A stretch of 64,000 nt of DNA from a virus. Lineage: Duplodnaviria > Heunggongvirae > Uroviricota > Caudoviricetes. Below the pieces are notes generated by a model, which was not told the DNA's origin, did no database searches, and saw only the letters and a list, made by a program, of their open reading frames with translations. The stretch's first letter is position 1. Each line of letters opens with the position of its first letter. The stretch covers positions 201,798 through 265,797 of the IMG/VR virus record IMGVR_UViG_3300031992_004563. The stretch is one strand, 5' to 3'. A program made the position numbers and the translations under genes. Shown here one piece after another: positions 28,951 to 33,711 of this stretch.

Positions 28951-29718
28951 ATGTTATTAAATGAAGTAGAAGAAATATATGATAGCATTTCGCCTGCACA
29001 AATAAATTTAAAATCTTTTGAAACTAAAGAATCTCTTAATCCAAAATTATGGAATGAAAATGGTGAATTAGAACCAAAAATTAGAAAACGCTTATTAACT
29101 ATTGCTATGGATTTTTATGATTCATTGAATATAGAAACACTTCCTAAAGATATTATAATTGTTGGTTCTAATGCAGGCTATAATTGGTCAAAATATTCTG
29201 ATATTGATCTCCATATTTTATTAGATTTTGATGAAATTAATGATAACACTGCGCTTTTAAAAAACTATTTTGGTGCTAAAAAGATTACATGGTCTAGCCA
29301 ACATAATATAACTATTCGTGGATATGAAGTTGAGTTATATGTTCAAAATATTCATGATGAAAATGCAAGTGATGGTATTTATTCATTAATTAAAAATGAA
29401 TGGCTTCAAATTCCTCATGCAAAAGATATTAGATTAGATAAAAAACTTATTACTCATTAGGCTGCAAAAATAATTAATTTAATAGATAAATATTTAGAAG
29501 AACCTATTCAAGATTTAAACAAGAATGATCTAGAGAAACTTTACATTAAGAGTGATAAACTATATAAACTAATATTTCAAAACCGTCGAGATGGAATTGC
29601 ACAATTTGGAGAAAGTGCAACACCAAATATAGTGTTTAAAGTTCTTAGAAGAAGTGGACATTTAGAAGCATTACGTCAATTAAAATTTAAAATTTATGAC
29701 AAATTAGAAAGTCTATGA
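28951..29718 (+). CDS. Pol-beta-superfamily nucleotidyltransferase (255 aa, code 15)
   Basis: GSNAGYNWSKYSDIDLHI (GS..DxD), VELYVQ; one TAG at 29458-29460, ends TGA. Confidence 0.75.
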
Positions 29719-30533
29719 AACTAACTAAACATATATTAGAAGCTATCAATAGAGGCATTTAGTTGGCACTAGATGACATTGAGGATAATGAACCAATTAA
29801 CCCATTATCTCAACATAATGATGTCATAGATAGTGAAGATGTTATAAAAAATAGAATAGAATTAGATAAAATAGTTGTCGATTTAGGGCTACCATCTGGA
29901 ACACTATGGTGCAAATATAATCTTGGTGTTAATCAAAATTAGTTACTTAAACCAGAAGATTGGTATGGAGATTATTATGCATGGGGCGAAATTGAGTCAA
30001 AACCAAAAAATATTAGAAAAACAAGTTGGACAAATTATAAATTTTGTAAAGCTCTTGATTAGCAAAATCGTCCTATTTTCACAAAATATATAACAAAATA
30101 TGAAAAAGATCATGGGCATGATATATCATATTTAGATAATTTAACTACATTATTACCAGAAGATGATGCAGCATATCAATATGATAACAGAATGAAAATA
30201 CCATCAGATGAATAGTTTGATGAGTTAGTTGATAATTTAACAGGCGAATGGAAACTTGGATATAATGGCATTAAAGGATTAAATGGAATGCTTTATAAAA
30301 GTGAAAATGGTAATGAAATATTTTTCCCTGCTGCCGGATGTATTTCAATTGATGGTAATGGAATTATTGGACAATCTGCATGTTTATATACAAACAAAAT
30401 TTCTTCATTAAATTTAAAAGCAAGATATGCCGAAATGTGGGGAAGTCAATTTAGTTGTAATGATATTATAACAGATGTTGATGGATTTAGATATAGAGCG
30501 TTATCAATAAGACCAGTATTAATTAAAAAATGA
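29715..30533 (+). CDS. Leader family B + FISUMP/CLec-like domain, paralog 2 (272 aa, code 15)
   Basis: VDLGLPSGTLWCKYNLG, YYAWGE, PEDDAA, IFFPAAG, LSIRPV; ATGA overlap with NTase. Confidence 0.78.
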
Positions 30534-31312
30534 AAAATTATAATAAAATATTAGAAGCAGTAAATAAAGGTATTTAGTTAGCGCTAGATGACTTTGAAGA
30601 TAATGAGCCAAATAGTTCATTATCACAAAAGAGTGATATCATAAACACTGAAGATACCATTAAAAAGAAAATAGATTTAATGAAAGATTTTATTGATTTA
30701 GGTTTGCCATCTAAAACTTTATGGGCTAAATATAATGTTGGAGTTAATCCTAATTAGTTATCTAATGCCAAAGATTGGTATGGAAATTATTATGCATTTG
30801 GTGAGATAGAAACAAAAGATGAATATACGTTAAATAACTATAAATGGTATGATGAATCTAAAGGAAGATTTGAAATGTTAAAATATAATTATCAATATGT
30901 ATTAGATTTAAAAGATGATATAGCAAACTTAACAAATAATAAATTTAAAACTCCAGATAAAGACCAATTTAAAGAATTATTACATTATACATCTCATTAG
31001 TTTGTTCAAAATTATAATAGAATATATGGGTTGAATGGTGTAGTATTCAAAAATAATAATGCAGAATTATTTTTACCTGCTGCTGGTCATTATTGTAATA
31101 AATAGTTATGTGCTAAAGGACACTATGGATTATATTGGACATAGAATTCTGGAAATCCTGGAAATGCATGGAATTTATTTTTCTCTGGGAGTCCAAAAGA
31201 TACATTTATATCAATAGAAAAATATTATAAAGAAGATAGGATTGAGTTATCATTAGGTGATAGATGCCAAGGATATACTATTAGACCAGTATTAAATTAT
31301 GAAACTAACTAA
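30530..31312 (+). CDS. Leader family B + FISUMP/CLec-like domain, paralog 3 (260 aa, code 15)
   Basis: IDLGLPSKTLWAKYNVG, LFLPAAG, YWT, DRCQGYTIRPV. Confidence 0.78.
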
Positions 31313-32060
31313 ACATATATTAGAAGCTGTTAACCGAGGTATCTAGTTAGCTTTAGATGACTTTGAAGATAATGAACCAAATAGTTCATTATCACAAAAG
31401 AGTGATATCATAAACACTGAAGATGTCATTAAATAGAAAATAGATTTAATGAGAGATTTTGTTGATTTAGGTTTGCCATCTAAAACTTTATGGGCTAAAT
31501 ATAATTTAGGTGTTGATTCAAAAAATAATAGAATGTTAAGATTTTCCAAAAATTGGAAAGGCGAGTATTATGCATGGGGTGAAACACAGCCTAATATTGG
31601 GTCAAAATGGTCAATATATAAATTTTCAGCTGCAGGATATGCTCAATTAACTAAATATTGCACAGATTCAAATTTTGGAATGTTAGGTTTTAATGATGGA
31701 TTAGATTAGTTGCTTCCTGAAGATGATATAGTTACAATAACATTAGGAAAACATTTTCATATTCCAACAAAAGAACAATGGGAAGAATTAATAAAATACA
31801 CAACAACATATTGGACAGATAATTATAAAGGAATCAAAGGTTTAGCTGGTAGAGTTTTTGTAAGTGATGAGGTTGATAATGAAATATTCATTCCAAAATA
31901 TGAATAGTATACTGATACATGCTATAGTATGTCATCGAATATTTCAAAAATAAAACCATTTAGATCATATATACTTACAGCTTCTAAAGATTATGGGCTT
32001 CCAAATTTAACACCAAATTCTAGAGTAGACTTAATGCCAATACGCCCAGTGTATAATTAA
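31299..32060 (+). CDS. Leader family B + FISUMP/CLec-like domain, paralog 4 (253 aa, code 15)
   Basis: VDLGLPSKTLWAKYNLG, YYAWGE, PEDD, IPTKEQWEEL, MPIRPV. Confidence 0.78.
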
Positions 32061-32067
32061 TAAAAGA

Positions 32068-32097
32068 AAAGAGAGATTCAATTTAGAACCTCTCTTA
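32068..32097. terminator. Terminator between paralog array and ncRNA
   Basis: aagagag...ctctctt inverted repeat with A/T tails. Confidence 0.55.
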
Positions 32098-32102
32098 TTT
32101 TA

Positions 32103-32295
32103 TTTAGCGGAAGGTATATGGTCCTTGTGGGTATTCGTTTCCATAATTTTGTAAATTATAGTCGTAATAGGAACCTTGACTGATTCTGGACCTTGACCAA
32201 ACTTTCTTTAAGCTGCCTGCTACTGTACTTCACTAGGTTTTTAAGGCTTAAATGAACACCCAAACAAGTTTGGCCTCACAGTATACTATGCCAAA
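32103..32295 (-). ncRNA. Putative 193-nt rod-shaped RNA with 6S-like architecture
   Basis: 5'/3' end pairing, a 13-bp internal helix with G-U pairs only on the minus strand, an A/U-rich central bubble, TAAATA 6 nt upstream, a hairpin downstream and no credible ORF. Confidence 0.5.
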
Positions 32296-32331
32296 TTTTT
32301 ATATTTATTATAGACAATATTCTGAAAAAGT

Positions 32332-33711
32332 TTATTTTAAAGAATCATTTTTTATTTTTTCTTTAAAATTTGGATCAATTTCTGCAAAAATATCTTTAAA
32401 CATTTGCTCATATTGATCTTTATTATGTCTAATTTCATCTGGAAGGAATGTTAATAAATGGTCATATTTATCTTTTGCCTTTTCATTATAATTTTCAACT
32501 AAACATTTATAGAAATTATAAATTACTTCTGCAAATCTTTTTGGACACCCATTTAATATACTATTTTTAACATCATATATTTCAGAACTTCCATTATCAT
32601 ATGAAATTGCTCCTGTAGCACGTCTAGATTTTGTAGCAAATAATGGGTCAATACTTACTTTATTTTCTGTCATATTTGATCTACCATGAATACATGCAAT
32701 TAAGGGTTTTATACAAATATTATTATAATTTAATCTTCCATTTTCATATTGTGTTGATGAAATTAATAAAAAGGCTTTTAATTCTGGAAGAATTTCACTT
32801 TCATCAAGTTTATTATTTTTATAAGTGAGTTTAGTATCTTTAATAAAATCGATAAGTGTTTTATTACTATGTACAATTTTTAATAATGCATTATGAATGC
32901 CTGTCATCATTCTTGCATTACTACTTGATGCTGCACTAAAACTATTTCCATATGCAACTTTTAAATCAATAGGAATTATATCATTTTCATTCTTATTAAA
33001 CACTGCATCTGGAAATGCCATTGGATTATTGTTGTTACATACATTAACATCTGACAATAATTGAATAATATTAGTTGGATCCTTTTTATTATGTTTAATT
33101 CCACTTAATAATTGAATTGTAGCTTCATTTGCATAACCGCCCGCACTTTTAAGAATTGTTTGTAAAATTTGTGTGGCAGTATAAGATCTATCATCTTTAA
33201 ATTTTGTTTCATCATTTATAGATGCTAACATCTCATCTTCACCATTATTATTTGTATAAATTTCCAAAGCAGTTTTTATATAAAAACCATTACCCATATT
33301 AAATGAATTAATATTATTATAGAAATTTAAAAATTCATTATTTGTTGTAATATGTTTTGCAATTTCAGATAAATCAATATTTGAAATTGTTTTCTAATTA
33401 GCTTCATTTAATTGTCCCATTATTAATCCAATCTCTGTAATTTTATATTTTTCCATTAGTACAGAATTAAAATCAAATTCTACACTATTAAGATATTGAT
33501 CTGGCTCATATATAGGAGTCAAATCAATATTGGTATTGAAATCAAATTCTTGTGGTTCTGGCACATCATTAAAATCAAAATCTTCACCATCTTGATCTTT
33601 ATCAAATAATGCTGTTAAATGATACCACTTTTTATTAAATTTGATATCTTTACTAAATTCTTTTGAAGTATTATAATTTCGCCAATCTTCTTTCTAATTA
33701 ATCTCTTTCAT
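32332..33711 (-). CDS. Late hypothetical protein (459 aa, code 15); possible PD-(D/E)xK-like C-terminal domain
   Basis: ATG 33711 with two TAG reads into track ORF 32332-33297; TAAATA upstream; GQLNE site; FPD...IDLK. Confidence 0.6.

Follow-up and report, generated by a model that had tools for sequence, protein, structure and literature searches.

Does the GC-richer island between two convergent genes of this gut virus encode a functional RNA, and if so, how does the RNA fold and what might it do? The initial annotation, made from the sequence of a 64,000-nt window (the whole stretch of DNA analyzed here), proposed that positions 32103 to 32295 specify a 193-nt minus-strand RNA that would fold into a 6S-like rod, be made late in infection, and sequester RNA polymerase. 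Here, we evaluate these proposals by comparing the locus with its homologs and with known RNA families.

The window belongs to a 380.5-kb IMG/VR virus record (labeled G000) of 76% completeness as estimated by CheckV. Its GC content is 28%, and it shows long open reading frames (ORFs) only if TAG is taken as a sense codon. An S1-domain protein, encoded 3 kb from the RNA on the upstream side, is about 55% identical to its homologs in the Prevotella phages Lak-A and Lak-B. Because of this similarity we assign the source genome to the Lak-like megaphages, and its sequence characterizes it as a TAG-recoded member of that group. The stretch was found in sequencing runs of sheep, bovine, and goat gut samples. 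When ORFs are called with TAG = Q, the RNA gene falls in a 271-nt intergenic gap (32061 to 32331) with convergent genes on both sides: P0002 (31299 to 32060, plus strand) and, directly upstream of the RNA, P0001 (32332 to 33711, minus strand), which has two in-frame TAG codons.

Conservation of a predicted minus-strand RNA gene

As noticed in the initial annotation, the island is richer in GC (0.37 to 0.39) than the window (0.28) and has no credible ORF. No ORF is conserved among the homologs, in which the longest open stretches span 25 to 57 codons and differ in frame and strand. Using covariance models built for the RNA, we recognized 20 distinct homologous sequences (59 to 236 bits), all of them in ruminant-gut Lak-like contigs and each located just downstream of a homolog of P0001. 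These sequences were drawn from the contigs of P0001 relatives and from pattern scans of IMG/VR and of metagenomes. A strict pattern of the 3′ part of the RNA added one IMG/VR contig and gave 8 true and 5 chance matches in metagenomes, and it had no match in 185,579 prokaryote genomes. The GC-rich ones among these matches proved to be chance matches in coding DNA. A looser pattern returned 4 new IMG/VR and 23 genome matches, including two Prevotella-labeled MAG contigs, all of which fail the covariance model and were set aside as chance. The gap had no blastn match among 50,697 phage records, an exact 21-mer search of IMG/VR was also negative, and the covariance models found no credible copy in the whole genomes of Lak-A2, Lak-B5, and a complete 673-kb relative (best score, 18 bits).

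The strand of the gene can be read from the alignment, in which strand-specific pairs comprise 56 G-U cells and only 3 A-C cells. This imbalance fixes the minus strand, on which alone, according to the initial annotation, the G-U pairs would work. Judged by this comparative evidence, selection acts on the minus-strand RNA itself, and 32103 to 32295 is the conserved core of a genuine, independently transcribed noncoding RNA gene. In the numbering used below, RNA position n corresponds to window position 32296 − n, and position 1 is 32295.

Predicted promoter and terminator

Two promoter elements are conserved in all homologous loci. The upstream element, AAACTTTTT (32325 to 32333, minus strand), lies 11 to 12 nt before TATAAT, which opens a TATAAT-AAW-TATAAA box (32296 to 32312, minus strand). 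The box includes the late-type motif ATAAATA and, within it, the TAAATA at 32307 to 32302 that had been proposed as a T4-type late promoter. The leader before UUUGGC measures roughly 11, 27, or 65 nt, depending on the clade. The hairpin noted after the RNA belongs to a predicted intrinsic terminator (32061 to 32096, minus strand), which consists of an 11-pair stem (32096 to 32069) and a T tract and faces the convergent gene as well; most loci retain the sequence of the stem. The RNA gene is thus predicted to have its own conserved promoter and intrinsic terminator, and these elements, together with the 20 homologs, uphold the proposal of an unannotated minus-strand RNA of about 190 nt.

The full promoter motif occurs in four copies in G000, of which two stand directly before the RNA and directly before the tmRNA gene, the third stands about 80 nt upstream of tRNA-Leu(UAA), and the fourth precedes an array of seven tRNAs by about 500 nt, with a small ORF between. 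There are also four full-motif copies in a second genome, G001: three are located before RNA genes (this RNA, the tmRNA, and a tRNA-Leu-like gene) and the fourth before a protein gene. The late-type character of the motif suggested by the initial annotation agrees with its distribution in G000: in a crude census, the 90-nt stretch preceding the ORF contains ATAAATA in 52 of the 140 TAG-containing ORFs (37%) versus 20 of the 191 TAG-free ORFs (10%). The motif TAnnTTTG shows the opposite tendency in G000 and lies upstream of 16 of the 140 TAG-containing and 33 of the 191 TAG-free ORFs. Phage sigma factors are mentioned in the Lak preprint.

The genes that share the promoter have features of their own. 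The tmRNA gene of G000 (G000:C1:269450-269849, minus strand) lies about 3.6 kb past the end of the window and encodes the tag peptide GEDEYAMAA, and the tmRNA of G001 (L071; Rfam tmRNA model, 76 bits) is likewise preceded by the extended promoter. The tRNA-Leu(UAA)-like gene of G001 (L069:1565-2285) extends over about 720 nt behind the common promoter, and its acceptor, D-arm, anticodon-stem, and 3′ parts are split by large insertions of higher GC content, possibly introns; neither ARAGORN nor Rfam calls this gene. ARAGORN identified 31 tRNA genes in G000, one of which has an unassignable anticodon, and did not detect a CUA suppressor tRNA anywhere in this approximately 76% complete record of 380 kb, although TAG is a sense codon.

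In some relatives, the RNA core and the terminator are separated by an additional conserved module of about 110 nt, which contains two hairpins, one of them GC-rich. This 3′ module is present in L005 (L005:4112-4225), L007, L011, L017, L020, L023, L026, L027, L029, and L041, has diverged in L040 (L040:2597-2700), and is absent from the window’s clade and the L006 clade.

Covariation and the predicted fold

In the final model of the 20 sequences, 97.6% of cells are paired, and both sides have changed in 19 of the 42 pairs. The covariation score (0.382) exceeds that of shuffled alignments (0.177) and was reached in none of 500 shuffles, and it falls to 0.03 to 0.10 in a control in which the partners were slid by 1 to 3 columns. 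All helices described here are on the minus strand. The ends of the core are joined by helix H1 (32290 to 32295 with 32103 to 32108; RNA positions 1 to 6 with 188 to 193), which is the pairing of UUUGGC with GCUAAA already put forward in the initial annotation. H1 is paired in 100% of cells, and one of its pairs has changed on both sides (G-C in 17 sequences, A-U in 2, and G-U in 1). Next to it is a tentative small 5′ hairpin, Ha (32278 to 32289; RNA positions 7 to 10 with 15 to 18; 98.8% paired), which varies only from G-C to G-U and has one mismatch, in L040.

Two domains are predicted inside H1. The first is built of H2 (32266 to 32275 with 32195 to 32204; RNA positions 21 to 30 with 92 to 101), with changes on both sides in 8 of 10 pairs, and of the hairpin H5 (32207 to 32252; RNA positions 44 to 50 with 83 to 89), with such changes in 4 of 7 pairs and a variable apical part that is reduced to a tiny loop in L040. 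The second comprises H4 (32188 to 32192 with 32120 to 32124; RNA positions 104 to 108 with 172 to 176), which is 100% paired and has one pair that switches between G-C (7 sequences) and A-U (11 sequences), the hairpin H6 (32171 to 32186), and the hairpin H7 (32141 to 32161), which likewise covaries and is found in all homologs with variable length and sequence. The domains are tied together by the long-range 8-bp helix H3, in which GGGUGUUC (32261 to 32254; RNA positions 35 to 42) pairs with GAAUACCC (32136 to 32129; RNA positions 160 to 167). H3 is paired in 93% of cells, and 5 of its 8 pairs have changed on both sides. Because H3 crosses both H2 and H4, the RNA is predicted to be pseudoknotted (pseudoknot 1). 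The alignment was fitted to nested helices with H3 outside the model, and the support for H3 is therefore independent of the fitting. Taken alone, the covariation of H3 may fit pairing inside one molecule or between two.

A second pseudoknot is likely to form between the AAGG of the H6 loop (32177 to 32174) and a CCUU (32114 to 32111) in the 3′ tail. In L040, the most divergent homolog, the loop sequence AAGGU has become AGAGU and the tail sequence ACCUU has become ACUCU, which amounts to two compensated pairs in this single sequence. The tail is otherwise invariant, and L011 has a G-U at one of the pairs.

This branched and doubly pseudoknotted model replaces the proposed rod, two of whose four helices fail. 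Compensatory changes are found in the terminal stem and in the core of the 13-bp helix, which corresponds to H3, but not for the rod as a whole. The CUUG/CAAG extension of the 13-bp helix is paired in 61% of cells and the GUAUA.UG/CAUAUAC helix in 63.6%; neither is conserved, and their bases take part in other covarying helices. The strands assigned to an A/U-rich central bubble and an apical stem form separate hairpins, with H5 on the 5′ side and H7 on the 3′ side. The proposed mechanism of a 6S mimic falls with the rod architecture.

Folding energy adds no support, as 43 of 200 shuffled sequences are as stable as the minus strand (z = −0.94) and the plus strand is not significant either (z = +0.46). 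A helix of the minimum-energy structure (RNA positions 32 to 38 with 83 to 89) is paired in 87% of cells, weaker than H3 and H5, and is possibly an alternative conformer. The 3′ hairpin GGA/UCC proposed by RNAalifold is invariant and hence uninformative. Two local resemblances were rejected. The likeness of GGUCAAGGUCCAGAA to SRP RNA domain IV is limited to the window’s clade, with the GNRA hairpin absent and no SRP model matching, and a sarcin-ricin-like GAA/AGUA loop at the tip of H5 is absent from L040 and the L006 clade, which places it outside the core.

Comparison with known RNA families

No Rfam model matches the window at the gathering score, and none of 4,227 models matches 31900 to 32500 or the RNA in seven homologous loci at E ≤ 10; the models without a match include those of 6S RNA. 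ARAGORN found neither a tRNA nor a tmRNA in the window, and it did find the 31 tRNAs and the tmRNA elsewhere in the genome. The RNA has no similarity to the tRNA, tmRNA, SRP, RNase P, or rRNA models. As specific candidates, tRNA and tmRNA were rejected for having no counterpart here of a cloverleaf or tRNA-like domain, by either ARAGORN or Rfam. Such an RNA is not mentioned in the Lak papers that we searched.

The RNA does share general features with several known classes. Like 6S RNA (RF00013; in Bacteroidota, 6S-Flavo, RF01685), it is predicted to come from an independent gene of 180 to 200 nt (here about 190 nt) with its own promoter and terminator, and its 5′ and 3′ ends pair. Unlike 6S RNA, it is branched with two pseudoknots and has neither a rod nor a conserved bubble resembling an open promoter.

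The cores of RNase P RNA and of group I introns are built around long-range pseudoknots. The RNA resembles both in that a closing helix joins its ends and the long-range H3 crosses other helices. Its strand order H2a, H3a, H2b, H3b recalls P2/P4 of RNase P RNA, and the order H3a, H4a, H3b, H4b recalls P3/P7 of group I introns. However, the helices P3 and P8 and the conserved regions of these classes are missing or misplaced. RNase P RNA was rejected on the grounds that the bacterial A and B, archaeal, and type T models do not match at E ≤ 10 and that the helix order differs from P1-P2-P3-P4. A group I intron was rejected as well: no Rfam model matches, and the RNA is intergenic, has its own predicted promoter and terminator, and interrupts no host gene.

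Two further comparisons concern phage RNAs. The pRNA of phage phi29 measures about 170 nt and has paired ends, and its covarying loop pairings, first taken as an intramolecular pseudoknot, proved to be intermolecular. Compared by description, the two RNAs are alike in being phage-encoded, structured, and paired at the ends, whereas they share no likeness in sequence or helices, and no link to packaging genes is seen here. The small RNAs RNAC and RNAD of phage T4 are located in the T4 tRNA gene region. They are late RNAs whose function is still unknown (PMC9697503). The predicted RNA resembles them as a small, stable, late phage RNA linked to phage tRNA genes with no known function, but it has no evident sequence relation to them, is larger and doubly pseudoknotted, and is tied to a nuclease gene. 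Of the classes compared, RNAC and RNAD offer the closest functional parallel. We conclude from these comparisons that the RNA belongs to no catalogued family and represents a predicted new family among the stable small RNAs encoded by phages.

Association with a predicted nuclease gene

P0001, the gene upstream of the RNA, is represented in the protein collection by 15 relatives (97% to 35% identity); it has no family in Pfam or PHROGs and no relative in IMG/VR detectable by peptide patterns. Its AlphaFold model has a pLDDT of 64, is better at residues 110 to 445, and matches NlaIV, HincII, EcoRV, and restriction-endonuclease entries of AlphaFold DB. Because of these fold matches and of a motif PD...D-L-K that is invariant in the alignment, P0001 is predicted to be a PD-(D/E)xK nuclease. 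At its N terminus, a conserved basic-aromatic motif is followed by a disordered acidic region with FDFN repeats.

The RNA and P0001 occur together. A copy of the RNA is recognizable in the 240- to 480-nt gap after every P0001 homolog of at least 38% identity, directly downstream in every examined locus. A longer, 35%-identical relative, P0017, has no RNA beside it, and both P0001 and the RNA are absent from Lak-A2, Lak-B5, and the complete 673-kb relative. P0001 was not found in published Lak genomes.

Traces of the RNA in metatranscriptomes

A 194-nt contig from a bovine metatranscriptome (X22) lies within 32066 to 32306, as seen in assembled contigs rather than raw reads. The contig, which comes from a relative, connects 32306 and 32066 through a single additional letter, at a depth of 2.4 and with a short side of 22 letters. 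At this joint, the UUUUC that follows the terminator stem is fused to the base immediately downstream of TATAAT. We take it as a hint about the transcript ends and nothing more; it could stem from a circular RNA, a ligation artifact, or a tandem copy. In a sheep metatranscriptome (X3), the whole stretch is covered including the flanks, and DNA content is possible. The flanking genes have no cover in X22 and X24, and the RNA has none in X20, but absence of cover carries no weight. Small shares of the RNA’s words were found in 12 RNA runs of 9 studies, which likewise carry no weight for expression or habitat.

Possible functions of the RNA

We propose, with somewhat better than even confidence, that the gene specifies a stable trans-acting RNA, that this RNA represents a new family limited to a subclade of ruminant-gut Lak-like Prevotella megaphages, that it folds to bind protein, and that P0001 is its likeliest partner. 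The RNA would act through its shape, as a scaffold, cofactor, or decoy in a ribonucleoprotein. We favor protein binding over antisense action or mimicry of an open promoter because the RNA has no long conserved single-stranded seed and its invariant bases lie in junctions; the only long invariant single strand is the one used for pseudoknot 2. The adjacent nuclease P0001 would be the likeliest binding partner because of its strict co-occurrence with the RNA. Synthesis of the RNA would coincide with that of tmRNA and tRNA-Leu(UAA), which have the same promoter type, and would fall in the TAG-recoded and presumably late phase.

The choice of partner is a narrow one, and we only slightly favor P0001 over the translation or RNA-processing apparatus. 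The co-occurrence of the RNA and P0001 could reflect one inserted cassette within a narrow clade of conserved gene order, and we know of no PD-(D/E)xK restriction-like nuclease that depends on RNA. The promoter shared with tmRNA and tRNA genes points as much to a role in translation as to a nuclease partner. A stable RNA of the tRNA/tmRNA regulon might, as a decoy or cofactor, bind the ribosome, a translation factor, or an RNA-processing enzyme in the late phase. The occurrence of the extended promoter before the tmRNA and tRNA-Leu(UAA) genes of two genomes is consistent with such a role, as are the S1-domain protein gene 3 kb upstream and a compact fold like those of RNAs that bind large machines. 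We nevertheless regard it as unlikely: the same promoter precedes at least one protein gene, the RNA is absent from other complete Lak genomes that have tRNAs and recoding, and the models of the translation-related RNAs named above show no likeness to it.

If P0001 is indeed the partner, the two genes might form an undescribed two-part system, in which the nuclease needs, or is restrained by, the late RNA, itself maybe circularized by putative phage RNA ligases. We consider this elaboration rather unlikely.

The fold and the X22 joint also raise the possibility of a ribozyme or a self-processing, perhaps circular, RNA, in which the double-pseudoknot core would be catalytic or the transcript would be joined head to tail. 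Two pseudoknots with invariant junction bases have the complexity of small ribozymes, and the contig that connects 32306 to 32066 is what a circle would leave. Yet the joint is a single shallow contig of a relative, with its 22-letter short side, and was not listed as a joint by the tool; a tandem copy, or ligation in the course of library preparation, would give the same picture; and no known ribozyme model matches. We therefore consider this explanation improbable.

We think it very improbable that the element acts in cis, whether as a riboswitch-like aptamer that governs read-through of the terminator and thereby exerts antisense control on the convergent gene, or as a structured 3′ untranslated region of the P0001 mRNA. 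The closing helix, the complex aptamer-like core, and a terminator only 6 nt later would suit a riboswitch, and the position directly after P0001 would suit an untranslated region. However, the RNA is separated from the P0001 stop codon by a conserved promoter of its own, and no alternative antiterminator pairing appeared on reading the sequence. The distance from core to terminator grows to about 110 nt in two clades (the L005 clade and L040), and the next gene is convergent in all examined loci except L014; with no riboswitch model matching, a terminating riboswitch was rejected.

A 6S-like sponge that imitates an open promoter and, late in infection, ties up the host holoenzyme containing the primary sigma factor is hardly tenable: it agrees with the length of about 190 nt, the independent gene, the paired ends, and the late-type promoter, but the search with 6S models at E ≤ 10 was negative, the place of the central bubble is taken by H5 and H7, H2 and H4 cross the long helix, and half of the rod’s helices are lost. 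With the 6S-like label wrong, the sequence alone gives no ground to pursue sequestration of RNA polymerase.

Returning to the protein-binding RNA that we prefer, pseudoknotted RNAs of this complexity and size are rare, and solving them has usually revealed a ribozyme, a ligand sensor, or the core of an RNA-protein machine. The present RNA is found in the largest known gut phages, behind a promoter common to tmRNA and a tRNA, and is accompanied by a nuclease gene. It offers a testable handle on the recoded late program of Lak-type megaphages and on the control of nucleases by structured RNAs of phages, with a general reach limited by the narrowness of the family (about 20 sequences, from ruminant guts only).

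Other genes near the RNA

Four head-to-tail ORFs of 253 to 272 aa (TAG = Q; 28951 to 32060, plus strand) converge on the RNA, and one of them has a sub-threshold match to nucleotidyltransferases. In one relative, a gene for an IS200/IS605-type Y1 transposase is inserted beside the S1-domain gene (L007:688-1290). Genes of 255 aa similar to the four ORFs follow the RNA in most homologous loci.
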